Shown: piece after piece, positions 4,524 to 55,182 of the stretch
Layout of the letters: each line of letters opens with the position of its first letter
Numbering within the stretch: the first letter of the stretch is position 1
Assembly: GCA_016182095.1 (NCBI GenBank)
Contig: JACOXY010000010.1
Coordinates: forward strand, 334 to 64,333
DNA length: 64,000 nucleotides
DNA from: Candidatus Liptonbacteria bacterium
Lineage (GTDB): Bacteria; Patescibacteriota; Minisyncoccia; UBA6257; JACOXY01
Reading direction: 5' to 3'
Translations under genes and position numbers: made by a program
The notes under the pieces: generated by a model
The model's input: the letters and a program-made list of their open reading frames with translations, nothing else
Database searches by the model: none
Told to the model about the DNA's origin: nothing

Positions 4524-4546
4524 AAATTAAAATGTAAAAATCAAAA

Positions 4547-4672
4547 ATCCCTCACTCAAGAAGGAGTTTGGGTCGGTTCTGGAAATCGTAATATTAATTA
4601 CCAACAATAAATTATTAAGATAAAATGAATTTTGAGAAGAAGCGGAAAATGCTCCTTCTTGAGTGAGGGATT
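4547..4672. mobile_element. MITE-like element, family F1 copy 1. About 125 bp with 20-bp perfect terminal inverted repeats ATCCCTCACTCAAGAAGGAG.
   Basis: Terminal inverted repeats read directly. About 92% identical to the copy at 52903-53027. An inverted, more diverged copy lies at 44021-44144. Confidence 0.6.
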
Positions 4673-5052: not shown

Positions 5053-8000
5053 ATGAGGGAAAATAAAAATGAAAATAAAATAGTATCCAAAGCGGAACCA
5101 CGCGAAATAACCACTGAACTCAAGGAGTCTTATCTTGATTACGCGATGTCGGTCATAGTTTCGCGCGCCTTGCCGGATGTCCGCGATGGCTTGAAGCCGG
5201 TACACAGAAGAATTTTGTGGGCCATGTGGGACATGGGGCTTACGCATGGAGCTAAATTCAGAAAATCTGCGAATGTCGTTGGATCCGTCCTCGGCGCGTA
5301 TCATCCGCACGGCGACTCATCCGTGTATGACGCAATGGTGCGATTAGCGCAACCCTTTTCCATGCGCTACCCGCTAATCGAGGGGCAGGGTAACTGGGGA
5401 TGTTTTACCAAGGATACCGAAGTAAAACTTGCAGATGGGCGGAACTTGAGCTTTGGAAAACTCATTGAAGAAGATGCTCGAGGAAAAACCAACTATACAT
5501 ACACGGTCAATAGTTTAGGGTTAATATCGGTGGCAAAAATAGAAAAACCAAGAGTTACAAGAGGTGACGCCGAGCTTATTAGAGTTACACTTGATAATGG
5601 CATCGAGATAAAATGCACCCCAGACCATCGCTTTATGTTAAGAGATGGGAATTATAAAGAAGCTCAGTATTTAACGCCACAAGATTCATTAATGCCGCTT
5701 TATGAAAAGTTGTCCGAAAAAACTGATAGATTAAACATATCAAATTTGATTAGATATGAAATTAGAAATAACCACCGCGTTACTAAAATCGAAAAATTAT
5801 CAGAGAAAGAAGACGTTTACGATCTTACGGTCTCTGGTTCGCACAACTTTTCTTTGGGGGCGGGCATTTTCGTACACAACTCGGTCGACGGGGATTCTGC
5901 GGCGGCGATGCGCTATTGCGTTACGGGCGATACTTTAGTTGTTACGGAAAATGGCCTGCAAAAAATTAAAGACATGCCGGGTAAAACTGATAATTTTGAG
6001 CAGGACATAAATATTAAAATCCTTTCTAGGGAGAAAAAAATCCACAAAGCCAGCAAATGGTTTGATAGTGGAGAGCATCCTACTTTAAAAGTAACAACGA
6101 GCCGCGGCCATCAAATAGAAGGATCATATAATCATCCTTTGCTAACTTTAAATAAAAATGGGAGTGGAAAACCAACATTTCAATGGAAAACTCTTGAACA
6201 GCTTACTGCTGGCGACATAGCGGTTCTGGATCGTTCAAGCGATGTTTTGTGGCCGGAAAAAGAAGTTGCTTTAGATAAATTTTATCCAACTGGCCTGCAT
6301 AATAGAACTGAAAGAAAAAAAATGCCGGCGCGCCTTGATGAGAATCTAGCTTTTATAATCGGCGCCATTATAGCAGAGGGGACTACCAGCAGAAAGAAAA
6401 TTGAGTTTTGCAATAGCGACCTAGAATTTGTTGCTGAATTCGAAAAAAGGTGGGCAAAAGTTTTCCCAGACTGCAGAATTCATAAATTTATTAAACAGCC
6501 CTCATCTTATGGGAAGAAAGAATATTGTCGCTTAGAAATTCATTCTCTTTGTGTGGTTTCATTTTTACACAATCTCGGTCTCAATATCGCCACTTCAGCA
6601 TTTAAAACAATCCCGGAACCAATTTTGCAGTCCCCTAAAAATGTAGCGGCGAGTTTTATTAGGGCTTATTTTGAGGGAGACGGCTCAATATCAAACTCTG
6701 ACAAAATGATTGAGCTTAGTAGCTGTTCCATAAGTAAAAAACTAACTGATGAGCTACAGGTTTTGTTGTTAAAATTTGGCATTGCCGCCACCAAAAGGTT
6801 CGATTCTTACAGAAATAACCATAAATTATACATCCGTGGAAGAAAAAATTATTTAGTATTTGCTGAAAATATAGGATTTGTTTCTGCGCGCAAAAATAAT
6901 AGGTTAAAAAACGTTCTAGGACATTATTTAAAGTTTGCCGCCCCGACAGATTTTATTCCTTATCTAACTGGCTATGTAAGAACATTTGTTGCCATGCCAA
7001 GAAGCGCCGATAGGCAGTTTATTCTCAAAAATAACTTTGATCGGTATCATTATTTGGAGAAAAACGGGGGTAGGGTAGCGCTTGCGGTGCAAGCCACGAC
7101 TGGCTTAAATCTTGAACCCCTATTCAGATCTTTTCTCGGCAATAATTATCTTTTTGATCCTGTGGCCAGCATTGAAAAAACGGGGGTCCAAAAAGTTTAT
7201 TCAATCAGGGTGGATAGTGAATGTCATTCCTTTATTGCGAATGGTTTTATTAATCACAATACAGAGTGCCGCCTCTCTAAAATTGCCGAGGAACTTTTGG
7301 GAGACATAGAAAAAGAAACTGTGGAGTGGCAGCCAAACTATGATTCAAGCCGCGAGGAGCCGAAGGTTTTGCCGTCTAAATTTCCCAACTTGCTCGTGAA
7401 CGGCGGTATGGGTATAGCAGTCGGCATGGCGACAAGCATTCCTCCCCATAACTTGAGCGAAGTGGCGGATGCCGCGGTAAAACTTTTGGATCATCCCAAA
7501 ACCAGCATCTCCGAAATAATGGAGATAGTTAAAGGGCCCGACTTCCCAACCGGCGGGATAATTTATGACCGAAAAAACATAAATGAAGCTTATGCCCTAG
7601 GCCGCGGTTCAATAACCACGCGGGCGCTCGCTGAAATTTCCGAAAAAAAGAGCGGCCAATATGTGATCGTCATAACCGAAATTCCATATCAGGTTAATAA
7701 ATCGGAGTTGATAATCAAAATCGCCGAACTAATCCAGGAAAAAAGAATTGAGGGCGTGAGAGACGTGCGCGATGAATCCGATAAAGACGGCCTCCGAATA
7801 GTAATAGAGCTGAAGAGCGACGTCTCGCCGCAAAAAATCCTAAACCAGCTTTACAAAAACACAGATTTACAGAAAGACTTCCACCTTAATTTGATCGCGC
7901 TTCAAGATCGTGGAATTCAGCCCCAGCTTATGTCTTTGAAAGACATGCTGGAGCAGTTTATCGATCACCGCAAAGAAGTTGTGCGCCGCAGAGCGGAGTT

Positions 8001-9351
8001 TGACCTTAAAAAAGCCAAGGAAAGGGCGCATATTTTGGAGGGACTCGCTAAGGCGCTATCGGTTATTGATAAAATAATCGCCACCATCAAGAAGTCGGGC
8101 GACAAAGAAGAGGCGCATAAAAATTTAATCAAGAATTTCAAGCTTACCGACATACAAGCGACGGCTATCCTCGAAATGCGCCTGCAAACTTTGGCGGCCT
8201 TAGAAAGGCAAAAGATTGAGGACGAGCTAAAGGAAAAACTGAAATTAATAAAAGATTTGGAGATATTGCTTAAGAGCCCCGAAAAAATAAAGGGGGTTAT
8301 TAAGGACGAACTCCAAGAAATGCGGGAAAAATTCGGTGACGAAAGAAGAACCAAAGTAGTGTCAGGCGGGCTGAAGGAGTTCAAAGAAGAAGACCTGGTA
8401 CCGGAAGAAGAAACCGTGATAACCCTTTCCGCGGGCGGGTACATAAAGAGAAGCAATCCGGGAGATTTTAAGGTACAAAAGCGGGGCGGCAAAGGGATAA
8501 TAGGAGGCGATGTCGGTGAAGAAGATTTTGTGCGCCACTTTGTGAGCGCCGTAACTCATGACAACATTTTATTCTTTACCACGAGCGGCAAGGTTTTCCA
8601 AACTAAAGTTTATGAAATACCTGCGGCTTCAAGAACATCAAAGGGAAAGGCCATACATAACTTTTTAGAAATCCCCACCTCCGAATATGTAAGCGCTATT
8701 ATTGCATATCCATCCAACACGCAAAATCAAGAAACCGCGGCATCGGGCTTCCTTGTTATGGTCACCGAAGGCGGCGTTATCAAAAAAACCAAAATTGCCG
8801 ACTTTGAAAATGTCAGAAAAAGCGGCATTATCGCCATTAAATTAAGAAGCGGCGACAAACTCAAATGGGTGGGGTTATCTGAAGCCGGGAACGACATTCT
8901 TATCGCCACCATGAACGGCCAGGCGATCAGATTCAAAGAAAAAGATTTGCGCCCCATGGGGAGGGCGGCAAGCGGCGTTACCGCCATAAGGTTAAAAAAG
9001 GGCGATAAAGTAAATGCCATGGAAATAATTAGAGGAGGAAAAGAGACGCGAGAAACACAGCTCCTCGCGGTTATGGCTAACGGTTACGCCAAGCGCACCC
9101 CCTTAAAAGAATATAAGGTGCAAAGGCGGGGCGGCTCCGGGATTAAAACAGCCAAAATAACGGCAAAGACCGGCTCCATAGTGGCGGCAAGAGTTATAAC
9201 CGAGGAAGAAGAACTTCTGGCTCTTTCAACTAAGGGCCAGATAATCAAGACCTTAATCAAGGATGTGCGCATAGCCGGCCGCGCCACGCAAGGAGTTAGA
9301 ATTATGTCGCTTAAAGCCGGAGATAAAGTGGCGGGGATAGTGTGTCTGTAG
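5053..9351 (+). CDS. gyrA: DNA gyrase subunit A, interrupted by two inteins. Extein total is ~824 aa.
   Basis: GyrA motifs are all present: [37 protein letters not shown]|..|[12 protein letters not shown]|..|[13 protein letters not shown], and the C-terminal beta-pinwheel repeats. Confidence 0.9.
5401..5880 (+). other. Mini-intein (160 aa, no endonuclease domain). Inserted between GQGNWG and SVDGD. Starts with Cys, ends His-Asn, with Ser at +1.
   Basis: CFTKDTEV...GIFVHN|S. The flanking exteins reconstitute the conserved GyrA GN(F/W)G-S(V/I)DGD motif. Confidence 0.7.
5917..7260 (+). other. Intein (448 aa) with a LAGLIDADG homing-endonuclease domain, at the canonical GyrA intein site (AAMRY|C...HN|TE). 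It lies only 12 extein residues after intein 1.
   Basis: CVTGDTLV...FINHN|TECR. LAGLIDADG-like blocks [13 protein letters not shown] and [12 protein letters not shown]. Same insertion point as the mycobacterial GyrA intein. Confidence 0.75.
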
Positions 9352-10805: not shown

Positions 10806-11699
10806 ATGAAAAAAACTTATCGCTTTAAATTAGCTCTTATTCTATTGGTTTTGGCAGTCATCCCAATTCTCGCAAACGCCCAATCCATCATAAATCCCGA
10901 CGAGTGTTCAGGAATTTTTGATTTCATCCCGGCCGATAAAGCCAGATACTGCACTCTGTGCGACGGACTGCAAGCGGTAAAAAATGGATTGCTACTGCTT
11001 TTGAAAATTGGTGTGGGGCTCGCCGTGATAATCATTGCTTACGGCGGAGTGCTTATTATGGTTTCGGGCGCAAGTCCCGGCAAATTTGAGCAAGGCAAAA
11101 AAGCGATTATTGGTTCCGTGGTTGGGGTCGCGATCGGCGCTATGGCATGGATCATCATCAATCAAATTTTCTTCATCTTTGTAACGCAAAGCGTAACTCT
11201 GCGTCCCTGGAACGATATCCCCTGTCCCCAAGAACCGCCGAGATTTGGAGCATCATTGGGAGGCACTGGCGGCCCTGGGGGCACTGGCGGCACAGGTGGA
11301 ACAGGCGGTACGGGCGGCACAGGAGTATCTGTAACTGACAACGCCAGAGTAAAAGCTCTATTAGACCCCAGTATTCGATATAACAATAATTCATGCCCAC
11401 CAACCTGTGTGGGGGGATTGCCACAAACCACCATAGATAAGTTAAACACGCTACAGGCGCAGTGCGGGTGCGTTGAAATTACCGGCGGCACAGAACCAGG
11501 CCACGCCTCTCATGGACCAGGCCTTGCTGTCGTTGATATTCGTTACAATCAAAGGGCAATTGATGGTTTGCGAAACATGGGCTACTCCGAAAGCAACTTT
11601 GGAACTGGCTACACCTGTGAACCGGCAGGAGGGAATACTGGCGGAACAAGGGTTCTGTGCAACAGCGGGCGCGCGGATAAAATGCATGTGGAGTTCTAG
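10806..11699 (+). CDS. VirB2/TrbC-like pilin paralog 1: signal peptide, hydrophobic helix pair, GGT-rich linker (GGTGGPGGTGGTGG...) and Cys-rich C-terminal domain.
   Basis: Signal peptide plus LLLLLKIGVGLAVIIIAYGGVLIMVSGASPGKFEQGKKAIIGSVVGVAIGAMAWIIINQIFFIF two-helix hairpin, typical of conjugative-pilin-type subunits. Confidence 0.45.
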   Translation: MKKTYRFKLALILLVLAVIPILANAQSIINPDECSGIFDFIPADKARYCTLCDGLQAVKNGLLLLLKIGVGLAVIIIAYGGVLIMVSGASPGKFEQGKKAIIGSVVGVAIGAMAWIIINQIFFIFVTQSVTLRPWNDIPCPQEPPRFGASLGGTGGPGGTGGTGGTGGTGGTGVSVTDNARVKALLDPSIRYNNNSCPPTCVGGLPQTTIDKLNTLQAQCGCVEITGGTEPGHASHGPGLAVVDIRYNQRAIDGLRNMGYSESNFGTGYTCEPAGGNTGGTRVLCNSGRADKMHVEF

Positions 11700-11975
11700 A
11701 ACCCATCTCAAAAGTATATTCAAGCCGCGTTCTTAGCAATTTTTCAGGTATCCGCAAGGCACGACGAGGAAGGTGTAGCCTATGCGCTACTCCGACGAGG
11801 AGTAACGAAGCGGAACCTGAAAAATTGCAAGAACCCATTCGGGATACGGCCAATTTCTGTCTGATACTTTGTCGCTTCGGGCTTAATGTATCTAAAGATA
11901 CACCTTCGCCCTTGCTCCTCGTACAGACAGAAATTGGCCTGTATCGCGGCCGAAGATACTTTTGAGATGGGTTCT
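11698..11975. mobile_element. 278-bp non-coding element with 20-bp perfect terminal inverted repeats (AGAACCCATCTCAAAAGTAT) and two nested internal inverted repeats. MITE-like or structured RNA, lying between pilin genes 1 and 2.
   Basis: Terminal inverted repeats at 11698-11717 and 11956-11975. Inner inverted repeats ggatacggccaatttctgtctg / cagacagaaattggcctgtatc and cgacgaggaaggtgta / tacaccttcgcccttgctcctcg. Confidence 0.55.
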
Positions 11976-11994
11976 AATTTGATACAATATAAAA

Positions 11995-12513
11995 GTGATA
12001 AGTAATATAAATTTTAAAAACTTTCTTCTTTTGGCCGTTTTTTCTTCTTGGTTATTTTACGCGTTGTTTTTCAGCGCCGCACTGCAGGTGTTCGCCGCCT
12101 GCACCACCAATGCTGACGGAACTATAAGCTGTGACACACCAGGCGAGGTCCCGTCTGGCGCGACAAATTGCACATCAAATGCCACGGGGGGCGTCACCTG
12201 TGGCACTGCGGGGAGCACAGGGAATAATTCGGGTAGTCAAGGACAGGGCACAAGCAGGGTTACGATTGACCCCCCATTCTCGGGAACTCTCTTGCAGGTT
12301 TTGGAGCGCATTGCCAACTTTCTTATCTTAATCGGCGCGCCCATCGCCACCATCATGATTCTTTATGGTGCGTTTCAAATTTTGACAGCCGGCGCCAAAT
12401 CTGAACAGTTCACTAAAGGCAAAAATACTATTATTTACGCGGCGGTCGGCTACGGCATCATAATAATCGCCAGAGGAATCACGTCCATTGTGGTAGATCT
12501 GATTACGGGATGA
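11995..12513 (+). CDS. VirB2/TrbC-like pilin paralog 2 with Cys/Thr/Gly-rich N-terminal extracellular segment.
   Basis: Signal peptide, Cys-rich region, then helix pair LLQVLERIANFLILIGAPIATIMILYGAFQILTAGAKSEQFTKGKNTIIYAAVGYGIIIIARGI. Confidence 0.45.
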   Translation: MISNINFKNFLLLAVFSSWLFYALFFSAALQVFAACTTNADGTISCDTPGEVPSGATNCTSNATGGVTCGTAGSTGNNSGSQGQGTSRVTIDPPFSGTLLQVLERIANFLILIGAPIATIMILYGAFQILTAGAKSEQFTKGKNTIIYAAVGYGIIIIARGITSIVVDLITG

Positions 12514-12575
12514 TTGCTGCTGCAAGTATCATGTATCAGGTATCAAGTGAGTGAAATTAATTTTAATTTACTCAT

Positions 12576-12604
12576 TGTACATGACACATGACACATGACA
12601 CATG
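12576..12604 (+). repeat. Tandem heptanucleotide repeat (CATGACA)x4 overlapping the start codon of pilin paralog 3.
   Basis: catgacacatgacacatgacacatgaca read directly. Every unit carries an ATG and the 7-nt unit shifts frame, so copy-number change would move the start codon (candidate slipped-strand phase switch). Confidence 0.6.
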
Positions 12605-17251: not shown

Positions 17252-18199
17252 CTATCTTCTCTTCCCATGGAAAGCTTTATGCACTTCTTTAAGGCCCTTG
17301 TTCGTGATGTGAGTATAAACTTGGGTGGTTGCGATATTCGCGTGCCCCAAAAGTTCCTGCACCGAGCGCAAGTCGGCTCCGTTTGTTAAGAGGTCGGTCG
17401 CGAAAAAATGCCTCAACATATGCGGAGTTATGCGATCTTGAACGCCAATTTGTTTGGCATAACCGTCAACCATTCTTTGGACCGCGCGAGATGTAATTCG
17501 CCCAATTACTTTTTCGCGCCTATTTGACCTATTAGACTCATTAGACTGGTGGGGCTTATTATTTTTATTCAGCGCCGGGTTGCCAGCGGCAAAACTTACA
17601 AACATCGCCTCTTCCGCGTCTTCCCTGCGATCAAGATAATTTTTAATTGCTTTTTTTGCTACATCCGCAAAAAAAACCACGCGAATTTTGTCTCCCTTGC
17701 CGCGCACACTTAACTCTCCGCGGTCTAAATTAATATAGCGGTTCAGGGCACACAATTCTGATAAGCGCAGCCCGGTAGAAAATAGTGTTTCCAAAATCGC
17801 CTTATCCCGCAAACCGCGAAGCGTTCCCGTGTCCGGCGCCCCCAAAAGAGATTTCAAATCCCGCTCGTCAGGAATATCAATTTGCCGCGATGGAGTCTTA
17901 GGAAGCTCAATTTTATCGGGAGATAAAACTTTTAAATCACGCTTGATTAAATACTTCAAAAAATTGCGAAGCGCTATTATATAATAAGCCTGGGTATTTT
18001 TTTTAATTTCTCTTCTCGCGAGCCAAAGTCTGAAGTTTCTGATTAGCTCTGCGTCTATATCTCTTACCGATTTTAGCTTGGACCACCCTAAAAAGATTTT
18101 TAGATATCGCCCATAATTTTCCTGTGTTTTTATGGATCGTCCTTTTTCAATCTCTAAATAATCCAGATATTCGTTTAGGTATTTCTCCGCTTCGTTCAT
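17252..18199 (-). CDS. xerC: Tyrosine site-specific recombinase, XerC/XerD family. Carries an in-frame N/K/S-rich low-complexity insertion.
   Basis: N-terminal SAM-like domain (YLDYLEIEKGRSIKTQENYGRYLKIF) and catalytic domain with R..HxxR..Y (HMLRHFFATDLL, LLGHANIATTQVYTH). Confidence 0.7.
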   Translation of the reverse strand: MNEAEKYLNEYLDYLEIEKGRSIKTQENYGRYLKIFLGWSKLKSVRDIDAELIRNFRLWLARREIKKNTQAYYIIALRNFLKYLIKRDLKVLSPDKIELPKTPSRQIDIPDERDLKSLLGAPDTGTLRGLRDKAILETLFSTGLRLSELCALNRYINLDRGELSVRGKGDKIRVVFFADVAKKAIKNYLDRREDAEEAMFVSFAAGNPALNKNNKPHQSNESNRSNRREKVIGRITSRAVQRMVDGYAKQIGVQDRITPHMLRHFFATDLLTNGADLRSVQELLGHANIATTQVYTHITNKGLKEVHKAFHGKRR

Positions 18200-24779: not shown

Positions 24780-25091
24780 ACTTAAGCCCTCTACGAGGAC
24801 GGTCCTCGTAGAGAATGGTTTATTTCACAAAAGGGTTCGGGAACCACTTTGTGAAATAGTTGAAAACGCGTTGCGAGGTAAAATTAAAAATTTCAAGGCT
24901 TGCCGACAAAGCTGTATCCGGTGCGATACAGCGAGGAGACATAACACAGAAATTTTTAATTTTAACCGCAACCCAAAGAGATATGCCAATTTAAAAGAAT
25001 CGCGGTGTTGCCCCTCGTCGTCGTATCACTGGGGATACGCCGTCCTCGTCACGTCTTGCGCTTCTTTTAAATTGGCTATATCGCGCCTCAA

Positions 25092-26099
25092 CTATTTCAC
25101 AAAGGGGTTCCTAGCTCCCTCAACTTCAAAATGCAAATGACATCCCGTGCTACCATGCACATTGCCGGTATTCCCGATTTTGGCAACCTGCGCGCCTTTC
25201 TCAATAAAATCACCCATCTGAACCAGATTTTCTTTGGTGTGAGCATAGGTTGTCTTAGTGCCGTTATTATGTTCTAAAACCACAAAGCCGCCATATCCGG
25301 AGTTCCATTTATCAGGACTACCAACTTTTAGAACCAAGCCGTCGGCTGATGCATAGACAGGGGTGCCGCAAACATTCGCTATATCCACGGCATTCGCTTG
25401 ATGCAAAACTCCCCAGTTCCAGCTATTTAAGAGTGCCGGAAAACCGAAAAATCCAACAATGGAAGGCAACTGCGGCAAAGAGCTTATGATAGAAGCCAGA
25501 GTTCTTTGGGGCTTACCGCTCGGGATAATGAGTGACGTGCCAGCTTTTAGTTCCAGGGAATTTTCAATCTTATTCGCCGATTTTATTTTTGAAACATCAA
25601 CCCCAAAGACAGAAGCAACTGACGCAAGCGTGTCGCCATCTTTAGTTTTATAAAGCACTCCGGAAACCGGCAAAATAATAAGTTCTTCATCAATACTTAA
25701 AACACCGCGGCCGATTTTAGGATTGGCCCAAAGAATAGTATTAACGGATATGCCAAATTGAGCTGCTATTTTGGAAAGATTGTCGCCAGACCGAACCCGA
25801 TATACCATAAGACCATTTTGCACCTCGGTTCCCCCGCCAAAAACAGAGCCCCTGTTATAGACAGAGGCGCTCGCCTCTGAAATTAGCCCACGCCCCCCTT
25901 CGCCCCCCAACCCCATTCCCTCGGTCGGAGCGCCTGGATTCTGGAGAGCATACAAAACCACTGATTCATCCCCAGAATTAATGTAGAAAGCGCCATCCGC
26001 AGGACCGCCAAAAACGCCGTTTCGCAAAATATCGGCCGAGGCAGAATTAAGAACCGCGTTCAGAGTTAAAACCGCAAAAACAAGAACGCTTACAAACAA
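25092..26099 (-). CDS. Secreted LysM-domain + M23 family metallopeptidase.
   Basis: LysM (YRVRSGDNLSKIAAQFGISV, YKTKDGDTLASVASVFGVDV) and M23 motifs (HNNGTKTTYAH, GNTGNVHGSTGCHLHFE). Confidence 0.8.
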   Translation of the reverse strand: MFVSVLVFAVLTLNAVLNSASADILRNGVFGGPADGAFYINSGDESVVLYALQNPGAPTEGMGLGGEGGRGLISEASASVYNRGSVFGGGTEVQNGLMVYRVRSGDNLSKIAAQFGISVNTILWANPKIGRGVLSIDEELIILPVSGVLYKTKDGDTLASVASVFGVDVSKIKSANKIENSLELKAGTSLIIPSGKPQRTLASIISSLPQLPSIVGFFGFPALLNSWNWGVLHQANAVDIANVCGTPVYASADGLVLKVGSPDKWNSGYGGFVVLEHNNGTKTTYAHTKENLVQMGDFIEKGAQVAKIGNTGNVHGSTGCHLHFEVEGARNPFVK

Positions 26100-26354: not shown

Positions 26355-28253
26355 ATGCTACCACAAAACTTAAACAAAAAACAAATGGAGGCTGTGGAGA
26401 GTCCCGAGGGGCCGCTTCTAATAGTAGCTGGCGCCGGATCGGGCAAAACCAGGACGCTAACCAGCCGCCTGCAGTATTTGTTGTCCAAAAACATTAACCC
26501 CAGCTCCATTATTGCCATCACTTTTACCAATAAAGCGGCCGACGAAATGCGCGGTAGAGTTCAGAAGTTCATAGGTTCAAATCAGCCGTTCATTGGCACC
26601 TTTCATTCTTTGGGAGCGCGGATCCTAAGAAGAGAGACGGCGAGCTTGGGGAGGGGCGCTAATTTCAGCATTTTTGACTCCGATGACTCCTTAAGCGCCA
26701 TTAAAAAAACCATTAAAACTCTCGCGCTTTTAAAACAAGACAAGGCGGGTCCCACCATGTTTCGCTTTTATATTTCAAAAATTAAAAATGATCTGCTCCG
26801 GCCATCCGATTTATTGGAAGGAACAAAGCTCGCAAATTTGGAGGCGGTGTATGAAGAATATGAAAATCAATTAAAACGGATAAATGCCTTTGACTTTGAC
26901 GACTTGATTGAAAAACCAGTAAAACTTTTTGCGCGGAATCCCACGATTTTAAACGAATATCGCGAGCGCTTTAAATATATCTTGGTTGATGAATTTCAGG
27001 ATGTTAATACCGCCCAATATCAATTTATAAAGCTCCTGGCCAAAGAACATAAAAACATAAATGTGGTCGGGGATGACGCGCAATCTATATACAAATTTAG
27101 GGGGGCGAATTTCCAGCATTTCCTTAATTTTGAAAGCGATTGGCCAAATGCCAAAGTTGTGTTTTTGGAAGAAAATTATCGCTCAACCGGGAATATTATT
27201 TCGGCAGCTTCGGCGGTGGTGGGGGAAAATAAACTGCAAAAACAAAAAAATCTTTGGACGCGAAATCCCGCTGGAGCCCCAATATCTATCATGGAGCACA
27301 GAGATGAAATTGGTGAGGCAGAGTGGATAGCAAACAATATTAAAAATCCTTACACGGCCGAGCCGTCCGAGACCGTCCGCGGTCGGACTAGGTCAGGCTT
27401 TAGGCAAATATCAAAAATAAAAAATAAGGAGGCTGCCGCCATTTTATATAGAACTAACGCGCAATCGCGGGCAATTGAGCAGGCGTTGATTGAAAGAGGA
27501 ATCTCTTACCAAATTTTCGGGAGCATAAGGTTCTACGAAAGAAAAGAAATAAAAGATCTTGTTGCATGCCTCCGCTATGCCTGGAATCCAAAAGATCTTA
27601 TTAGCCTGGAGAGATTATCCAAAAACTTTCTTAAAAAACCATATTTAATTCTTCAAGCAGAGCTCCCCCAAAGGGCCTCGGGGCAGGCCGCGCTTTCGCC
27701 ATACGAACTTTTAATTTATGTGATAAATACCACCAAATATTTTGATTATTTAAAACAAAATTATCCAAATGCCGAAGAGCGCGCGGAAAATATTAAGGAG
27801 CTTTTGAATTTCGCGTCAGCCCACAATGATTTGGGCGGGTTTTTGGAAAAAATCACGCTTTTGCAGTCAAATGATGATCAAAACAGTCGCGTAACGACAA
27901 CTAATAACAAAAGCGGGCGTCCTGTTATAAGTAATAAGTTATCGGTTGTAAATTTAATGACAATCCACATCGCCAAGGGCCTTGAGTTTGATAGGATTTA
28001 TCTCGCGGGATGCAACGAGGGGCTCTTGCCGCATCAAATGTCATATAGCTCTCCCGACGAAATAGAGGAGGAGAGAAGGTTGATGTACGTAGCAATGACC
28101 CGAGCCAAGCAGGAGCTCATTTTAAGCTTTTATGATGTTGGATCAAGGTTTCTATACGAAATTCCCCCGGAATTAATAAAATTCCAAAGCGCGTTAAAAT
28201 CAGAGCAGGAAGAATTTTTGGATGACGAAGAAAGATATATCGTGCACGACTAG
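26355..28253 (+). CDS. pcrA: UvrD/PcrA-type ATP-dependent DNA helicase.
   Basis: Walker A AGAGSGKT. Helicase motifs DEFQDVN, VGDDAQSIY, ENYRS, MTIHIAKGLEFD. Confidence 0.85.
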   Translation: MLPQNLNKKQMEAVESPEGPLLIVAGAGSGKTRTLTSRLQYLLSKNINPSSIIAITFTNKAADEMRGRVQKFIGSNQPFIGTFHSLGARILRRETASLGRGANFSIFDSDDSLSAIKKTIKTLALLKQDKAGPTMFRFYISKIKNDLLRPSDLLEGTKLANLEAVYEEYENQLKRINAFDFDDLIEKPVKLFARNPTILNEYRERFKYILVDEFQDVNTAQYQFIKLLAKEHKNINVVGDDAQSIYKFRGANFQHFLNFESDWPNAKVVFLEENYRSTGNIISAASAVVGENKLQKQKNLWTRNPAGAPISIMEHRDEIGEAEWIANNIKNPYTAEPSETVRGRTRSGFRQISKIKNKEAAAILYRTNAQSRAIEQALIERGISYQIFGSIRFYERKEIKDLVACLRYAWNPKDLISLERLSKNFLKKPYLILQAELPQRASGQAALSPYELLIYVINTTKYFDYLKQNYPNAEERAENIKELLNFASAHNDLGGFLEKITLLQSNDDQNSRVTTTNNKSGRPVISNKLSVVNLMTIHIAKGLEFDRIYLAGCNEGLLPHQMSYSSPDEIEEERRLMYVAMTRAKQELILSFYDVGSRFLYEIPPELIKFQSALKSEQEEFLDDEERYIVHD

Positions 28254-28270
28254 AACCCATCTAATCTATA

Positions 28271-40178: not shown

Positions 40179-40214
40179 GTCCCCCACCGCTTTTTTAAAA
40201 AAGCGGTGGGGGAC
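40179..40214. terminator. Strong bidirectional terminator: GTCCCCCACCGCTTTTTT AAAAAAGCGGTGGGGGAC.
   Basis: Perfect 18-nt palindromic hairpin read directly. Confidence 0.7.
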
Positions 40215-43586: not shown

Positions 43587-44021
43587 CTACACCAGCGTTA
43601 TCACCACATGCCTCTCTTTTCCCATCCCCTCGCTCCCGGTTTTAACTTCCGGATGAACCGCGAGCGCGGTGTGTACCAGTCGCCGCTCGTAGGAATTCAT
43701 TGGCGGCAAAGCGATTGGTTCTTTGGTGGCTATAACTTTTTTGGCGGCCGCCCTGGCAAGCTCCGAAATAATGCGCTCTCTCTCCATCCGATAATTATTG
43801 ACGTCAACAAAAAACGGCGGCTCGTTCTCACGTTTGGCAATAAGCTGGGCCACAATATTAAAATCCTGCACAAAATGACCCAGGTTTTTCTCTATAACCG
43901 GGGTTAGCTCGTCACTAATAAAGATAGAAATCTTCCTTGCTGATTCGTCGCACTTTACGTCCGATTCTTCAAAGCCCATCTGCTCAACAATTTTTTTAAT
44001 TGTGTCGGGTACATTGGTCAT
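43587..44021 (-). CDS. jag: Jag/KhpB-like RNA-binding protein (KH + R3H domains).
   Basis: C-terminal R3H motif (MNSYERRLVHTAL). Position downstream of yidC in the conserved rpmH-rnpA-yidC-jag order. Confidence 0.7.
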   Translation of the reverse strand: MTNVPDTIKKIVEQMGFEESDVKCDESARKISIFISDELTPVIEKNLGHFVQDFNIVAQLIAKRENEPPFFVDVNNYRMERERIISELARAAAKKVIATKEPIALPPMNSYERRLVHTALAVHPEVKTGSEGMGKERHVVITLV

Positions 44022-44144
44022 CCCTCACTCAAGAAGGAGCATTTTCTGCTACTTCTTGTATTAATATTAATTTGATTTAATGTTCAGAATAATCATGGTA
44101 TAACGACTGTTTAATTGATGGCTCACACTCCTTCTTGAGTGAGG
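44021..44144. mobile_element. MITE family F1 copy 3 (inverted orientation, interior diverged) between jag and yidC.
   Basis: Same terminal inverted repeats TCCCTCACTCAAGAAGGAG / CTCCTTCTTGAGTGAGGGA. Interior begins cattttctgct, the reverse complement of the copy-1 interior end. Confidence 0.5.
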
Positions 44145-44157
44145 GATTTTTGATATT

Positions 44158-44877: not shown

Positions 44878-45017
44878 ATATATAACGCGAAATTGGCGAA
44901 TCTTTTATGCCTATAGCCTGTCGGCTCGGCCGATTAAGGCGAAATTGGCGAAAAGAGTCATTTTGTTTTTTTTATTATTTCGCGTGTTTCGCATACTCAA
45001 TTCGTAGTTTCGCATTA
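44878..45017. mobile_element. Repeat family F2 copy 3 with both terminal GCGAAA-rich arms, between yidC and rnpA.
   Basis: Identical core. Right end ttcgtagtttcgcattat is the inverse of the copy-1 left end tataatgcgaaactacgaa. Confidence 0.6.
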
Positions 45018-45338
45018 TTTTAAAAACTTTAAAATATTGCTGGCTTCTTTTTGTAGGTCTTTTTTTGTTAAATCGTTAACCGCCGGCAATATGGTAATAA
45101 TAACATCTTTGCCGGGTTCTAGGCCCTTGCCGGCAATTCTAATAAATTCATAAACTTTTCTTTTAAGAGAGTTTCTCTTGGGTGCTTTTTTGTTAATTTT
45201 ATTACCCACCACAACGCCAAACCGAGAAAAATTCAGGGCAGATCCCATAATTTTAATAACAAAAAAGTTGTTCCTCACAACTTTTCCCGGCTTTTTATAA
45301 AAATATTGAATTGGAAGGCGATATTTTTTGGCAAGCAT
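45015..45338 (-). CDS. rnpA: Ribonuclease P protein component.
   Basis: Basic protein (KKYRLPIQYF...RNSLKRKVYEFIR). Lies immediately downstream of rpmH. Confidence 0.8.
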   Translation of the reverse strand: MLAKKYRLPIQYFYKKPGKVVRNNFFVIKIMGSALNFSRFGVVVGNKINKKAPKRNSLKRKVYEFIRIAGKGLEPGKDVIITILPAVNDLTKKDLQKEASNILKFLK

Positions 45339-46042: not shown

Positions 46043-47437
46043 ATGGAAAATTTAGAGCAACAAGAACTAACAAAAATTTGGCAGTCGATTTTAAATGAGA
46101 TAGAGCTGCAGTTGCCTAAGGCAAGTTTTGTAACTTGGCTTAAAAACAGCGAGTTGGTTGATAAAAAAGATGGCGTTGCTTACATTGCTTTACCCAACAG
46201 TTTTACAAAGGCCTGGGTGGAAAATAAATACAATAAGATTATTTTAGGCAACATAAGACTGCTGGATGATTCAACTAAAAACATAAAATATTTGGTTAAA
46301 AGCGCCAAATCTTCCGACTTTCCCAAAGACGCCGATAAAAATAACGGCTCAAAAACCGAAACATCCGAAAAACAGCTTGCTTTCCCGGAATTTAAAATTG
46401 ATCCCGAAACCAACCTTAATCCCAAGTATACTTTCGCGACTTACGTAGTTGGCGGTTCAAATGAACTTGCCTATGCCGCCGCCCAGGGGGTTGTTGGCGA
46501 CATCGGCAAAAAATACAATCCTCTTTTTATTTATGGCGGGGTTGGACTCGGCAAAACGCACCTGATGCAATCTGTTGGCAATGAAATAAAAAATGCTTAC
46601 AAAAACCAGGTAAGGGTAAAATACGTAAGCTCGGAAAAGTTCACCAGTGACGTAATAGCCGCGATAAGAGCCAAGCGCGCCGAAGACGTTAAGAAAAAAT
46701 ATCGAGACGTTGATGTTTTGATAATAGACGACATCCAATTCATAGCCGGCAAAGAAAAAACAGAAGAGGAATTTTTTAATACTTTTAATGCTCTTTACGA
46801 GGTTAATAAACAGATTGTTATATCTTCCGATAGGCCGCCAAAAGCCATCCCTGTTTTAGAAGAGAGGCTTCGCTCCCGTTTTGAGGGCGGAATGGTGGTG
46901 GACATCAGCCCCCCGGATTACGAAACAAGAACGGCAATTATAAAAACCAAGCTGCAGCAAAAAAACAAGGAATTGCCCGACTCCGTTATTGACGTTATAG
47001 CCGCAAAAGTAAGAAAAAACATAAGGGAAATAGAGGGCATAGTAAATGTCGTTCTTTTCTATAAAGAACAAAAAAGGGCCGACCTTACGCCGCAGGCAGT
47101 TGAGGAAATTATTAGAAAAAATACCCAACACACCCCGGAAAATATAACTCCGAATCACATTGTAAGAGCTACGGCCAACTTCTTCCAAATTCCTATTGAT
47201 GACTTAATGGGTAAGTGCCGCAGGAAAGAATTTGTAAGGCCTCGGCAGGTTGCAATATATCTTTTGCGCGACATGCTTGATTTATCATATCCGCACATAG
47301 GAGACATTGTGGGGAAAAAGGACCACACCACCGCCATTCACGCCTATGAAAAGATCAATAAAGAATTAAACAAAAACAGCGATTTAAATCAAAAAATAAT
47401 TTTAATCAAAGATATTATTAATAAAAGCAGTGAATAA
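46043..47437 (+). CDS. dnaA: Chromosomal replication initiator DnaA.
   Basis: AAA+ Walker A GGVGLGKTHL, box VII, C-terminal DNA-binding domain (FVRPRQVAIYL...IGDIVGKKDHTTAIHA). Confidence 0.9.
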   Translation: MENLEQQELTKIWQSILNEIELQLPKASFVTWLKNSELVDKKDGVAYIALPNSFTKAWVENKYNKIILGNIRLLDDSTKNIKYLVKSAKSSDFPKDADKNNGSKTETSEKQLAFPEFKIDPETNLNPKYTFATYVVGGSNELAYAAAQGVVGDIGKKYNPLFIYGGVGLGKTHLMQSVGNEIKNAYKNQVRVKYVSSEKFTSDVIAAIRAKRAEDVKKKYRDVDVLIIDDIQFIAGKEKTEEEFFNTFNALYEVNKQIVISSDRPPKAIPVLEERLRSRFEGGMVVDISPPDYETRTAIIKTKLQQKNKELPDSVIDVIAAKVRKNIREIEGIVNVVLFYKEQKRADLTPQAVEEIIRKNTQHTPENITPNHIVRATANFFQIPIDDLMGKCRRKEFVRPRQVAIYLLRDMLDLSYPHIGDIVGKKDHTTAIHAYEKINKELNKNSDLNQKIILIKDIINKSSE

Positions 47438-47726: not shown

Positions 47727-48833
47727 ATGTCGGTCATTATACTAAGAAATAATTTAAAAGAAGCGCTTGAAAAAGCTAATCGGGCTTTGGGAGAAGCATC
47801 TCATCTGCCGGTTCTTAAAAACTTTTTAATAAAAGCTGAAAATAATAATTTAATTATTACTTCAACTAATTTAGAATTAGGGATAACGGTATATGTTCCT
47901 GCTAAAATAATAGAGCCAGGATATTTTATGATCCCGGCTTCGGTATTTTCATCTTTAATTTCCAATATAACAAGCGAGAGACTAGATATTCAAATAAAAG
48001 ATTCTAATTTAGAGATAAAAGCCGATAATTATGAAGCAGAAATACCAATATTGAATTCTGAAGATTTTCCGATTATACCCGATATTGAAAATAAAAATAA
48101 ATTTATTGAATTTAACTCCAGTTTTATAAGTGAAGCTTTTAATCAAATTATATCCACTGTCCAGTTTTCGGAAATTAGGCCGGAGATCAGCGGTATTTTA
48201 TTTGATTTTCAATTAAACGAATTAACTCTTGTCGGAACAGATAGTTTTAGACTGGCTGAAAAAAAGATATCCAACAGTAAATTTAAAACAAATTTTGATA
48301 CCAACTTTAAATTTATAATCCCAATTAAAACAATACATGAGTTTATACGAGTATTTAAAAAAGACGAGATTGTTAAATTTTACTTTGATGAAAATCAAAT
48401 ATTATTTAAAAGTAATACCGTAGAAATTATATCCCGCCTTATAGAAGGAAACTTTCCGGATTATAAAGCAATTATTCCTAAAAATTTTGAAACAGAAATT
48501 GAAATAAATAAAAATGATTTCATGAATTCTCTTAAGTTATCCGGGGTTTTAAATCCAAGTATTTATGAGATTAAAATTATTATAAAAAGCGGCAAAAAAA
48601 ATATAGAGGTTTTATCAACCGAAAAAAGTTTTGGAAAAGCAAAATCAACCCTTCTGGCTAAAATCAAAGGCAAAGACGCGGAAATACTTTTTAACTGGAG
48701 ATATTTTTTTGACGGATTGAAAAACTTTAAAGACGAAGCTGTTTTTATTGGATTAAACGACGGTTCCCGTCCGGCACTTATTAAATCAGAAGATATAACT
48801 TATTTGTACATTTTGATGCCTATAAAACAATAA
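47727..48833 (+). CDS. dnaN: DNA polymerase III beta sliding clamp.
   Basis: 368 aa, three-domain clamp pattern. Position after dnaA. Confidence 0.8.
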   Translation: MSVIILRNNLKEALEKANRALGEASHLPVLKNFLIKAENNNLIITSTNLELGITVYVPAKIIEPGYFMIPASVFSSLISNITSERLDIQIKDSNLEIKADNYEAEIPILNSEDFPIIPDIENKNKFIEFNSSFISEAFNQIISTVQFSEIRPEISGILFDFQLNELTLVGTDSFRLAEKKISNSKFKTNFDTNFKFIIPIKTIHEFIRVFKKDEIVKFYFDENQILFKSNTVEIISRLIEGNFPDYKAIIPKNFETEIEINKNDFMNSLKLSGVLNPSIYEIKIIIKSGKKNIEVLSTEKSFGKAKSTLLAKIKGKDAEILFNWRYFFDGLKNFKDEAVFIGLNDGSRPALIKSEDITYLYILMPIKQ

Positions 48834-49272: not shown

Positions 49273-49369
49273 GCAACCTTGTTTAAATCTCGCGCTCCTA
49301 AAACAAAAACCCCATTATGCGCACTGGGGTTTTTGTTTTAAAGCTTTATAATAAAAAAGGCTGACACAT

Positions 49370-52238: not shown

Positions 52239-52329
52239 TACACCTGACACCCGACACCCGACATCTGACAATCTTATTTTGTCAGCTGTTATTTGTCAGT
52301 TGTTATTTGTGGAGTTTATACTAATTTAG

Positions 52330-52866
52330 CTAAACAGCTAAATTAGTATAAACTCCCTGTACATCCTCGTGGTCGTGAAGCGCCCTTATTAAAGCAAGAA
52401 GCCCACTTTTTTCTTCCGGGGCAATATCTTCTGTGAATTTAGCTTCGGGATCTTTGCCGGGGAGGATCTCGCTAAACGCCCACCTAACGCTTCCGGGCTC
52501 GGCCCACTTCCCGTGATTCGCGCTTAAGACCTTTTTAATTTCCGCGACGGTTTTATTATGGCTTCCAGTAATGGCGATTATTAATATTGCGGCTCCGCCG
52601 GGGCCATAAGCCTCAAAAACCAACTCTTCCAGGTTCATGCTTTTTTCCACTGCGCCCTTGATTGCTTTCTGAATGTTGTTGTGAGGAATATTTGCTTCTC
52701 GCGCCTTCTCTATTGCCGTTCTAAGCCGCGGGTTAAAATCGGGGTTTGGTTCTGGTTTGGCCGCCACCGATATCGCGTTCAAAAGCTTGGAAAACACAGC
52801 TCCCCTTTTAGAGTCCTTCTCTTCTTTTTTGTGTTTTATACCAGCCCAATGGCTGTGTCCGGACAT
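52330..52866 (-). CDS. yebC: YebC/PmpR-family transcriptional regulator (short form, 178 aa).
   Basis: MSGHSHWAGIKHKKEEKDSKRGAVFSKL...NPRLR matches the YebC N-terminus. Confidence 0.7.
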   Translation of the reverse strand: MSGHSHWAGIKHKKEEKDSKRGAVFSKLLNAISVAAKPEPNPDFNPRLRTAIEKAREANIPHNNIQKAIKGAVEKSMNLEELVFEAYGPGGAAILIIAITGSHNKTVAEIKKVLSANHGKWAEPGSVRWAFSEILPGKDPEAKFTEDIAPEEKSGLLALIRALHDHEDVQGVYTNLAV

Positions 52867-53079: not shown

Positions 53080-54780
53080 ATGGCTGATGCTTTGCAGAAA
53101 AAATCAGCAATAGAGGACAAGCTTAAAAAAATTGAGCGGGAAGCCGAGGAAAGAGATGCCAAAAGGAAGGCTTCGGACGCGGGCCTTTCTTACGTAGATC
53201 TTAAAAATATTCCCGTACAAATAGACGCGCTTTCTTTAATATCCAAAGAGGACGCCATAAAAAACAAAATGGCTGTTGTGGCCAAAAAAAGAAACAGCGT
53301 GGCGGTGGTTGTTTCGGATCCCAAAAATCAAGGAACCAAAAAAGTTACAGAGAGGCTTAAGTCTCAAGGGTTAAAGCCGGAGATTATGGTAGGTTCTTTG
53401 GCGGGACTTCGGACAATTTGGCGATCTTATGATTTTGTAAAGAAAGAACTCGCGGAAATTACCGGCCAGGTTGTGATAGACTCACAGCGCCTTAAGGAAT
53501 TGCGGCCGAAACTTGTTTCTATCCAGAGCGCCAAAGACGAAATTGTGAAAATTTTGGGAAGCAAGCTTGGTGTGGCTCCGGTTTTAGAAATATTACTTGC
53601 GGCCGCGCTTTCTCTAAAAGGATCCGACATCCATCTCGAGCCCGGAGAAAAAAATATCAAATTTCGGCTGCGCATTGACGGTCTTCTGCATGATGTTTTT
53701 AACGAAATTGCGACCCAAGACTATTTTTTCCTGATATCGAGAATCAAGCTCTTGTCTTCGATGAAGTTAAATATCCACGACGCGGCGCAAGATGGCAGGT
53801 TTACGATTAATCTTGGGGACAAGGACATTGAAATTAGATCTTCCGTTTTGCCTTCGGAATATGGAGAGACTGCGGTTTTAAGGATTTTAGATCCAGAAAC
53901 AATCCGGCTCACCCTGAACGATCTAGGGTTGCGCGATGACGACCTCGTGATTATTAACGAAGAACTGGGAAGGCCGAACGGGATGCTTTTGAACACTGGC
54001 CCGACCGGCTCCGGGAAAACCACCACGCTTTACGCGTTTATAATGCAAGTAAATAAGCCGGAATCAAAGATTATAACGCTTGAAGATCCGATAGAATATA
54101 GATTGGAGGGAATTGAACAAACCCAGGTTGACGATGAGGCCGGCTACACTTTTGGTAATGGTTTGCGTTCCATAGTTCGTCAAGATCCGGACGTCATTTT
54201 GGTGGGAGAAATCAGAGATTTGGAAACAGCCGACATTGCCTTAAATGCCGCCTTAACTGGCCACCTGGTTTTCTCAACGCTTCATACCAACGACTCTTTT
54301 GGAGCTATACCGCGACTTCTGGACTTGGGGGTGAAAACGGCCATTATCGGACCAGCGCTGAATCTTATAATAGCCCAGCGCCTGGTTAGGCGGTTATGCG
54401 ATAAATGTAAAGCAGAGGACAGCTCATTTGGCGGGCTCAAAAAACAAGTTCAAAGTTTTCTCAAAAATCTTCCGGACAAAGTTTCTAAATCTAAATATAA
54501 AGATTTTATTAAGGGCCAAGGAAAGATATTTAAAGCTCGCGGCTGTACCGCTTGCGGCGGGATTGGCTATGGAGGAAGAATCGCGATTATGGAACTCTTG
54601 AGGATCAACGATGAATTAAGCGGCCTGATATCAAAAGAGGTTACCGAATCAGAAATTAAAAAAAGCGCCGCTAAACAGGGGACGGTTTCAATACAGGGGT
54701 CAGGAATATTAAAAATTTTAGAAGGCGTTACAACGATTGAAGAAGTTATAAGAGTAACCGGACCGATTGTGTGGCAGTAA
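53080..54780 (+). CDS. pilB: GspE/PilB-family type II secretion / type IV pilus assembly ATPase.
   Basis: Walker A GPTGSGKTTT, Asp box, Walker B ILVGEIRD, His box, tetracysteine CDKC...CTAC. Confidence 0.85.
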   Translation: MADALQKKSAIEDKLKKIEREAEERDAKRKASDAGLSYVDLKNIPVQIDALSLISKEDAIKNKMAVVAKKRNSVAVVVSDPKNQGTKKVTERLKSQGLKPEIMVGSLAGLRTIWRSYDFVKKELAEITGQVVIDSQRLKELRPKLVSIQSAKDEIVKILGSKLGVAPVLEILLAAALSLKGSDIHLEPGEKNIKFRLRIDGLLHDVFNEIATQDYFFLISRIKLLSSMKLNIHDAAQDGRFTINLGDKDIEIRSSVLPSEYGETAVLRILDPETIRLTLNDLGLRDDDLVIINEELGRPNGMLLNTGPTGSGKTTTLYAFIMQVNKPESKIITLEDPIEYRLEGIEQTQVDDEAGYTFGNGLRSIVRQDPDVILVGEIRDLETADIALNAALTGHLVFSTLHTNDSFGAIPRLLDLGVKTAIIGPALNLIIAQRLVRRLCDKCKAEDSSFGGLKKQVQSFLKNLPDKVSKSKYKDFIKGQGKIFKARGCTACGGIGYGGRIAIMELLRINDELSGLISKEVTESEIKKSAAKQGTVSIQGSGILKILEGVTTIEEVIRVTGPIVWQ

Positions 54781-54820
54781 CCGGCCGTTTGAAAATATAA
54801 GCATATCGCGCATCATGGGC

Positions 54821-54997
54821 TTAGATCTGTGGGCATGTGCCCCCCGCCACTTACGCAAAATGTTATTTGGCAGAAGTGGTGGGGGGACGTAGCGAGTCTC
54901 TTTTTTATGTAAAAGAGTTTAGAACTCCTTTGAGGAGTAATCTAGCCAAAGCCGGATTATCCTTAAATCTAAAAGAAGTTCCCGCCCACAGATCTAA
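54821..54997 (+). ncRNA. Candidate structured non-coding RNA / cis element: 12-bp terminal inverted repeat AGATCTGTGGGC...GCCCACAGATCT enclosing three consecutive hairpins.
   Basis: 13-bp stem CCCCCCGCCACTT/AAGTGGTGGGGGG (one G-U), CTCTTTT/AAAAGAG, ACTCCT/AGGAGT. No protein-coding signal. Overlapping track ORF 54837..55145 is likely spurious. Confidence 0.35.
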
Positions 54998-55182
54998 AAC
55001 GGTGATTTATGAGACCTATCCGTTTCATGCGAATGATAGCATAAAAACTATTTTTTGTCAATATCAAGCGAATTGTCTATTTAAGATGCCGGTTCCACGA
55101 GAATTTATAATTAAAAGGCCAGCGAACCATAGAATACTCCAATAATTTATTATGTCAACTTTTTTAGAGGCTCCCAAAATAT

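Follow-up and report, generated by a model that had tools for sequence, protein, structure and literature searches.

A nested palindrome at a pilin stop codon in a Candidatus Liptonbacteria contig, possibly one copy of a REPIN/MITE-like family at gene ends across the Candidate Phyla Radiation

A nested palindrome of about 280 bp, here termed E1, was analysed in a stretch of 64,000 nt from Candidatus Liptonbacteria bacterium (GenBank assembly GCA_016182095.1, contig JACOXY010000010.1, positions 334 to 64,333 of the forward strand). This whole stretch is referred to as the window, and its own numbering is used for all coordinates given without a locus number (L001 and the like). The nested palindrome, first seen in an earlier note on the same DNA, is confirmed and lies far beyond chance. 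With a probability of roughly 0.5, E1 is read here as one copy of a non-autonomous palindromic family inserted at gene ends throughout the Candidate Phyla Radiation (CPR, Patescibacteria) and resembling REPINs (doublets built from REP, repetitive extragenic palindromic, units) or miniature inverted-repeat transposable elements (MITEs). Since copies are inserted at gene ends across the CPR, E1 is probably a small piece of mobile DNA and not a switch specific to the pilin genes. The family is apparently undescribed: the literature searched held no paper linking CPR to such repeats, no match for the motif strings and no description of CPR repeats or mobile DNA.

E1 occupies positions 11697-11976 and is bounded by terminal inverted repeats at 11697-11721 and 11952-11976 (25 nt, 96% complementary). 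Within these repeats the perfect 20-mer AGAACCCATCTCAAAAGTAT is found at 11698-11717 on the forward and at 11956-11975 on the reverse strand, at a chance expectation of 0.01 matches, and two further inverted repeats, both perfect, are enclosed (11736-11749/11815-11828 and 11848-11863/11924-11939), as the earlier note had described. The left repeat was rightly placed in a pilin stop codon, as it overlaps the TAG (11697-11699) of the open reading frame (ORF) 10806-11699. This ORF and the next three match the Pfam family PF18895 (T4SS_pilin), and E1 ends 18 nt before the next co-directional T4SS_pilin ORF, which agrees with the position between pilin genes that had been claimed. For the proposed multi-branched fold the comparison with shuffled controls was run: as RNA, the forward strand reaches -146.8 kcal/mol (z -14.6) and the reverse strand -156.6 kcal/mol (z -16.9), as DNA the element reaches -88.9 kcal/mol (z -14.7), and the fold energy was matched in 0 of 200 shuffles. 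Either strand folds alike into a closing stem (P1, 29 pairs), two long arms and a two-pair mini-hairpin between the arms. The parts of E1 are the following:

11697-11728, forward strand: 5′ arm of P1, pairing with 11946-11976 (29 pairs); its first three bases are the TAG stop of the pilin gene 10806-11699
11729-11834, forward strand: arm 1, with a 25-bp covarying stem and a conserved GA-rich apex
11764-11800, forward strand: apex module of arm 1, ACGAGGA-(GTAGC-loop-GCTAC)-CGACGAGG, the most conserved block of the family, which sets the strand called forward
11835-11842, forward strand: junction mini-hairpin with a conserved CC(C)/GG(G) stem and a variable loop
11843-11945, forward strand: arm 2, with a 24-bp covarying stem and a CT-rich apex that is a diverged inverted copy of the arm-1 apex
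11946-11976, forward strand: 3′ arm of P1, from the terminal inverted repeat and the fold

By an inverted-repeat scan of the whole window a second element of the same layout, E2, was found, which is 66% identical to E1 and lies between comM (end at 24779) and a convergent M23 peptidase gene (25092-26099). Common to both elements is a 38-nt block, GACGAGGA-NGGNGTANC-N6-GNTAC-NN-CGACGAGG, at 11763-11800 on the forward and 25013-25050 on the reverse strand. E2 and its surroundings are made up as follows:

24840-25111, reverse strand: E2, the forward strand of the element being the reverse strand of the window
25111-25083 with 24869-24840, reverse strand: P1 of E2
25082-24980, reverse strand: arm 1 of E2 (apex 25049-25013)
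24972-24870, reverse strand: arm 2 of E2
25092-25111, reverse strand: P1 arm of E2 that is the native coding end of the M23 gene (RNPFVK-stop)
24820-24838, reverse strand: a third, direct copy of the M23 3′ end, GAACCCTTTTGTGAAATAA, also encoding NPFVK-stop and abutting E2 on the comM side

A relaxed pattern from the shared block (20 bases) was scanned across 185,579 species genomes and gave 32 loci, about 15 of which are true members, while the remainder look like expected chance matches. Nearly all true members among the genomes are CPR (Saccharibacteria, Staskawiczbacteria, Yanofskybacteria and Paceibacteria, the window itself being from Liptonbacteria). A tighter pattern used on metagenomes gave 38 loci, all of them true members (38/38). 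Overall, the pattern scans yielded about 50 copies besides E1 and E2, nearly all of them in CPR bacteria, and a hidden Markov model (HMM) of the family detected extra copies within many loci, several per 8-15-kb locus and up to three in 10 kb; the window holds 2 in 64 kb. No family match was obtained in two pattern scans of viral contigs or by blastn against phage and plasmid collections. Rfam 15 gave no match at gathering scores for the window and six loci, and a lenient Rfam search (E ≤10) with E1 and the single-arm loci described below gave chance-level matches only.

The shared anatomy was derived from an alignment of 25 non-identical full-length copies with 314 columns, on which RNAalifold recovers P1, arm 1, the mini-hairpin and arm 2. 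Members measure about 270-280 bp. An outer stem (about 30 bp) encloses two arms, each about 100 nt long, and a CCC/GGG junction mini-hairpin; terminal inverted repeats are present in the family members and variable in sequence. Standard pairs fill 93.2% of the cells, against 34-47% when partners are slid by 1-3 columns, compensatory changes occur in 67 of 90 pairs (about 30 when slid in the same way), and the covariation score is 0.438, compared to at most 0.114 when slid; none of 500 shuffles reached any observed pairing or covariation value. Across the family, the stems diverge by 0.35-0.39 and the apexes by 0.20-0.25. What stays fixed in sequence is the unpaired and junction portion of the element: the inner end of P1 (...AG.CGCG-TT), the stretch separating the arms (AACCC-loop-GGGATAC), a stretch on the 3′ side (GTATCGCGGC) and, above all, the arm apexes. 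The arm-1 apex reads CAAGGCGCGACGAGGAAG-(GTAGC-loop-GCTAC)-CGACGAGGAGCAACG and the arm-2 apex is its diverged reverse complement (GTCGCTCCTCCTCGG...CCTTCGTCGTCGCTCCTTG), which makes the element a palindrome of palindromes. Its two arms are diverged inverted copies of one module, namely a variable stem and a GTAGC-loop-GCTAC hairpin between two CGACGAGGA repeats. In some copies the minimum-energy fold is one long hairpin joining the two apexes and not the cloverleaf. Inspection of the pair table shows that three tandem G·A/A·G pairs, split by single Watson-Crick pairs, can be drawn in the GA-rich internal loop, and some Watson-Crick pairs inside this loop covary (e.g. pair 80-120: CG 15, AU 5, GU 3). 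The fold and the apex motif are under constraint. Kissing between the GA loop of arm 1 and the CT loop of arm 2 was discarded: by inspection, the two loops seem complementary as a legacy of the inverted duplication, and E1 is one copy in which the complementarity has not been kept.

Comparison with element-free orthologous sites shows E1 as a gain at the stop codon of the T4SS-pilin gene and E2 as one at the 3′ end of the M23 peptidase gene. At the E1 site, the gap between pilin 1 and pilin 2 is 32 nt and free of the element in L081 and L082; a relative with a neighbouring solute-binding protein of 60% identity has the same order of pilin 1 and pilin 2 and no palindrome, and pilin 1 ends in ...VEF-TGA in the element-free relative as against ...VEF-TAG|AACCC in the window. 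In the closest relative (75% identical) the gap at this site measures about 240 nt and holds a different 132-nt imperfect palindrome (L080 7563-7694, CCCAGTAATACAACCCAGTA...TACTGGGTTGATATACTGGG); the latter is not detected by the family HMM and holds a CT-rich stretch (CTTCGCTCCTATCGTCGT) reminiscent of arm 2. At the E2 site, L077-L079 keep the synteny of uvrD and of convergent M23 and comM genes, with gaps of 48, 65 and 8 nt and no element. Thus, of the checks named in the earlier note, the search for further copies gave about 50 and the search for empty sites succeeded at both places in the window. Independent short-read assemblies of the window organism stop within 5-45 nt of entering E1 or E2, as is expected at repeats, and in one Saccharibacteria metagenome-assembled genome (MAG) two copies of 98.9% identity are inverted relative to their paralogous flanks. 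At L018 4565-5000 and L024 1015-1451 a family copy is nested in a palindromic composite of about 430 bp; these paralogous composites, from the same MAG, carry the 99%-identical element in opposite orientations.

No consistent target-site duplication was found in the flanks of about 28 copies. Duplication of a TA target, as in the IS630/mariner type, was rejected because TA flanks fail in most copies and fit only E1, L033 and L048, where they belong to the extended palindrome. The earlier note had offered three options (MITE, attenuator or terminator between pilin paralogs, structured small RNA); among these a MITE-like element fits best, with multiple copies, empty orthologous sites and assemblies that break at the element. 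The part that did not hold is the classical form, as target-site duplications and a related transposase were not found and the helices covary around conserved loops.

The relation to genes is close at both element ends. Gene 3′ ends run into or abut either end, with stop codons that range from some 7 nt outside the element to some 38 nt within it and mostly lie within about 20 nt, and several genes draw their last codons and stop from a P1 arm. Gene starts lie 13-79 nt beyond the element end in many loci, and co-directional, convergent and divergent settings of the flanking genes were all found. M23 peptidases as general flanking genes were rejected, E2 alone having an M23 neighbour. Against this background it appears very improbable that E1 is a locus-specific attenuator or terminator of pilin read-through, or the gene of a stand-alone small RNA. 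Such a role would suit a position flanked by co-directional T4SS_pilin genes, with the next ORF 18 nt away, the extremely stable structure, and a sigma-70-like match at 11979-12008, outside and just downstream of E1. However, E2 sits between comM and the M23 gene, other members stand beside unrelated genes in many lineages and in all orientations, and the 32-nt junction of pilin 1 and pilin 2 in L081 has no element. Moreover, no U-tract follows the outer stem of E1, the sole terminator-like match being an internal 6-bp stem at chance frequency, and neither an alternative anti-terminator pairing at E1 nor a promoter-plus-terminator pair around the element was found. The small-RNA option was not borne out either: Rfam gave no match, and the G:U counts show no general excess over A:C. 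Element ends contain no conserved promoter hexamer, and an outward promoter in the terminal repeat was rejected because TTGAGA is not conserved across copies.

According to the folding model, a transcript that runs across the element cannot avoid a very stable structure, in which about 30 bp make a duplex. From what is known of RNase III and of REP, enterobacterial repetitive intergenic consensus (ERIC) and Correia sequences, a duplex of this length would be expected to undergo cleavage or to stop exonucleases. The structure would thus probably block, end or be cut out of read-through between neighbouring genes, an effect that is regarded as a side-effect or a co-opted role and not as the reason for the element. 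Unusually long perfect hairpins are also common at CPR gene ends in general (window 52311-52356, 49299-49340 and 40179-40214, and many CPR loci), with stems of 13-31 bp, loops of mostly 3-4 nt and, in some cases, no T-runs.

In order to separate constraint on DNA from constraint on RNA, mismatches in the stems were counted with the forward strand read as RNA, where selection on RNA should give many G:U and very few A:C pairs. G:U and A:C mismatches number 26 and 27 in P1, where pair 43-273 has a U·G wobble in 9 sequences, and 17 and 17 in the arm-2 stem, and other mismatches are as frequent as either. As G:T and A:C are about equal overall, the counts argue against an RNA-only constraint, and the mismatches have the look of transitions left uncompensated in a DNA palindrome rather than of tolerated wobbles. 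The reverse strand folds more stably in 26 of 32 copies; this advantage probably comes from the apex loops, since the stems-only count shows no consistent strand bias, and assigning the strand of a putative RNA from fold energies was dropped for the same reason. The apex module also occurs alone, as a single hairpin (AAGGCGCGACGAGGAAG-hairpin-CGACGAGGAGCAACG), in contigs that look non-CPR and whose loci have no Rfam family match:

L034 2451-2513: lone apex hairpin between rplA and rplJ
L047 9288-9347 (= L004): lone apex hairpin after rpsT
L037 1705-1754: lone apex hairpin just before tmk
L069 3092-3152: lone apex hairpin after moxR
L041 2226-2300: lone apex hairpin after queE

Several results weigh against the interpretation of the family as mobile DNA. 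The arm-1 stem has 24 G:U against 4 A:C mismatches, an excess that comes mostly from pair 68-133 (U·G in 9 sequences), and of the two inverted apexes the GA-rich one of arm 1 is the better conserved. The lone apex modules are sense-oriented in all of the 5 independent non-CPR intergenic contexts, which hints at a strand-specific, possibly RNA-level, recognition; this sense bias could reflect an RNA function or a replication-tied strand bias of single-stranded DNA. Copies in the same genome are mostly 66-81% identical, so that most of them are old and do not derive from a recent burst, which favours a function maintained at each locus. Furthermore, no transposase or recombinase was tied to the element, a regular-expression search for HUH/Y1 (IS200/RAYT) motifs in 617 kb of genome fragments, a crude and weak test, gave no match, and neither a transposition intermediate nor an insertion polymorphism within a population was directly seen.

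Some of these points would fit a cis-acting structured RNA module in intergenic or 3′-UTR transcripts, an explanation that is possible and rather less than probable. A conserved protein would bind to the GA-rich arm, whose internal loop may be drawn with three tandem sheared G·A pairs; owing to the inverted second arm, transcripts coming from either side would be served, and the long outer duplex would act as RNase III site, exonuclease barrier or termination structure. Conserved loops and covarying helices, including the Watson-Crick pairs within the GA loop, are in line with this, as are the age of the same-genome copies, which are still well paired, the gene ends abutting both element ends, the stronger conservation of the GA apex, the arm-1 wobbles and the orientation of the single-arm motifs. 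On the other hand, the counts for P1 and arm 2 give no overall wobble excess and other mismatches are equally common, every orientation occurs, including a position between divergent gene starts, a U-tract and Rfam matches (even at E ≤10) are missing, and orthologous sites in relatives are element-free.

The outer stem and the core of the element behave differently. Among eight copies whose cores are nearly the same, the core diverges by 0.02-0.12, the outer 17 bp of P1 by 0.33-0.34 on either side, and the flanks by 0.70. Outer-stem divergence in this subfamily is as high as family-wide, although both sides have kept their complementarity. L001 and L053 share one and the same core inside different, matched outer stems, and L058 is a left/right chimera of both. 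A hairpin consisting of P1 only, without the core, is present at L073 4956-5001. A perfect 27-bp hairpin with a 3-nt loop at L018 714-770, which shares ATCTTAAGAATA with outer stems of the L053 type, may be a core-less outer stem as well.

E2 adds a case in which the outer stem can be traced to a gene. Its M23-side P1 arm reads AGG AAC CCC TTT GTG AAA TAG (RNPFVK-stop), and RNPFVK closes nearly all of 45 M23 homologue C-termini. In the closest relative the inverted complement of the M23 coding end comes directly after it, so that both make a core-less hairpin of 21 bp with a loop of 4 nt, and in more distant relatives the coding end stands without the inverted complement. When the flanks of other elements were checked for a third copy of the stem arm, such a copy was clear only at E2 and reached a marginal score at L067.

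Three processes may account for the contrast between core and stem: cores may home into pre-existing hairpins that serve as landing pads, gene conversion may homogenise the cores and not the edges, or the outer stem may be matched to the target at insertion. From the near-identical cores inside outer stems as diverged as the whole family, and from an E2 outer stem made of the last seven codons of the M23 gene and their inverted copy, a hairpin that the closest relative has by itself, with no core, a new class of structured mobile element could be proposed. In such a class only the cloverleaf core of about 240 bp would move and the closing stem would be built from or matched to the target, a proposal we consider unlikely. 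If it were true, it would imply hairpin-targeted or target-templated insertion by an enzyme reading the tandem-G·A apex motif, which also occurs singly in other phyla; a target-derived outer stem would mean a new insertion mechanism.

A still more doubtful explanation is a recombination site made of folded DNA, comparable to the integron attC site or the attP hairpin of CTX phage, in which the core would be swapped between hairpin landing pads as substrate of a tyrosine recombinase, e.g. the Xer-like enzyme encoded at 17252-18199. It would account for a conserved structure with variable stem sequence, for element ends overlapping stop codons, for a core younger than the outer stem together with P1-only hairpins, and for the copy that is inverted relative to its flanks, and a tyrosine recombinase gene does lie within the window. 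Xer-type recombinases are, however, housekeeping genes in most bacteria, and the nearby gene therefore says little. By inspection, the element ends, which read (A)GAACCC...GGGTTC(T), lack the attC core boxes (RYYYAAC ... GTTRRRY; the R′/R″ boxes of integrons), and neither an integron integrase or cassette array nor a recombination junction was seen.

Under the preferred interpretation of E1 as a copy of a mobile palindromic family, copies would spread via a folded single-stranded or cruciform DNA intermediate, and the CGCG/AACCC junction as well as the two inverted apex modules would be recognised by an enzyme acting in trans. This enzyme could be a transposase of the HUH/Y1 type or else a tyrosine recombinase, and none was linked to the element. 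The core of about 240 bp would turn over faster than the outer stem, and the latter would act like an older landing pad or a target-influenced end.

The earlier note had also pointed to a 13-mer after the uvrD stop codon as a solo end or preferred target of the element. The motif CTAGAACCCATCT does recur, one base off the position given there, at 28250-28262; it includes the uvrD stop codon, and the stop of the convergent gene is 17 nt away. The match covers only 12-13 nt, while the 12-mer with at most one mismatch is expected 0.13 times per window, and for a 280-bp query we estimate that one or other of its 13-mers turns up again in 128 kb in about every second case. Nothing element-like follows the motif, and the family HMM gives no match at this place. 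In the closest relative the uvrD stop is followed by TAAAACCAGATTT, which suggests resident intergenic sequence and not a solo end. Judged by sequence, the match is not significant alone and its status as an element end is unsupported; with no HMM match and similar resident sequence in the relative, an element remnant was rejected.

Some further features of the window were recorded. E1 and E2 lie in opposite orientations on one replichore, the origin of replication being probably near 45.4-46.0 kb, as concluded from the order of an rnpA-like ORF (45015-45338, reverse strand), dnaA (46043-47437) and dnaN (47727-48833), all assigned by N-terminal sequence. Between pilin 2 and pilin 3 (window 12520-12600, L080 ~8100-8200), GTATCA repeats, a hairpin (AGTGAGTGAAATTAATTTTAATTTACTCA) and a tandem heptamer (ACATGAC)x4 form an arrangement that is kept whole in the closest relative. 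An unrelated inverted-repeat element of about 127 bp is present twice in opposite orientations (4546-4672 and 44020-44147), with perfect terminal repeats of 20-21 nt, (A)ATCCCTCACTCAAGAAGGAG, and its copy at 44020 begins exactly at the start codon of ORF 43587-44021 (reverse strand). At 54812-55006, after ORF 53080-54780, an inverted repeat (23 nt, 83% complementary, 149 nt apart) surrounds GC-rich hairpins. GyrA (5053-9351, 1432 aa) is apparently interrupted by intein sequence, and its orthologue in L080 has Pfam matches to Intein_splicing and LAGLIDADG_3.

CPR bacteria, whose genomes are very small and streamlined, account for a large part of bacterial diversity, and the family spans several of their classes with an elaborate fold, a conserved motif and precise gene-end insertion. 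This combination points to a trans-acting transposase or recombinase or to an RNA-binding factor. In practical terms, the element breaks short-read assemblies at defined places, can mislead gene calling because it supplies or overlaps stop codons, and could serve as a lineage marker.

Among known systems, a retron non-coding RNA was excluded, since there is no reverse transcriptase neighbour (E1 is flanked by T4SS_pilin genes on both sides and E2 by comM and M23). The inverted terminal repeat of adeno-associated virus (AAV) and other parvoviruses is a T-shaped hairpin and forms the telomere, about 145 nt long, in which a linear single-stranded viral DNA genome ends. As a structural analogy only, it resembles the CPR element in an outer palindrome around two inner palindromes, a three-way junction and two orientations relative to the flanks; the CPR element differs in being internal to a bacterial chromosome, without a Rep gene and without sequence similarity. 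Integron attC sites have a conserved structure and a variable sequence, are read as folded single-stranded DNA and follow or overlap the upstream stop codon. The CPR element shares the conserved structure with variable sequence, the stop-codon position and possibly a branched terminal structure, but it has no R/L boxes, integrase or cassette array, is larger and contains strongly conserved internal motifs.

With classical MITEs the CPR element has in common the terminal inverted repeats and the presence or absence at orthologous sites. It differs from them in that neither TA nor other target-site duplications were seen, in that about 617 kb of loci showed no longer element or parent insertion sequence with the same ends, and in that its terminal repeats vary and covary while the internal loops are the conserved part. 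Correia elements, also called NEMIS (neisserial miniature insertion sequences), and ERIC sequences, also called IRU (intergenic repeat units), are short, non-coding and intergenic, have terminal inverted repeats, form hairpins in transcripts and can affect mRNA processing. The CPR element resembles them in being short, non-coding and intergenic, in its terminal inverted repeats, in often touching gene ends and in long transcript hairpins.

REPINs are REP doublets that form hairpins and are mobilised by RAYT (REP-associated tyrosine) transposases. They contain two inverted conserved units, show a compensated hairpin with an alternative clover fold, cause no target duplication and leave singlets as remnants (PMC3116915). 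In comparison, the CPR element is about three times larger, with an additional closing stem of about 30 bp and the junction mini-hairpin, and its conserved unit lies at the arm tips, flanked by CGACGAGGA direct repeats. CPR copies are also much more diverged within a genome (66-81%) and thus lack the high abundance and high similarity typical of REPINs, and the weak motif search found no RAYT/IS200-like gene. The likeness consists in extragenic, dispersed, multi-copy elements with two inverted conserved units that either pair together or fold separately as a clover, in compensatory changes, in the lack of target-site duplication, in the occurrence of single units and in an apex that contains GTAG/CTAC. 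By these properties the REPIN is the nearest known kind.

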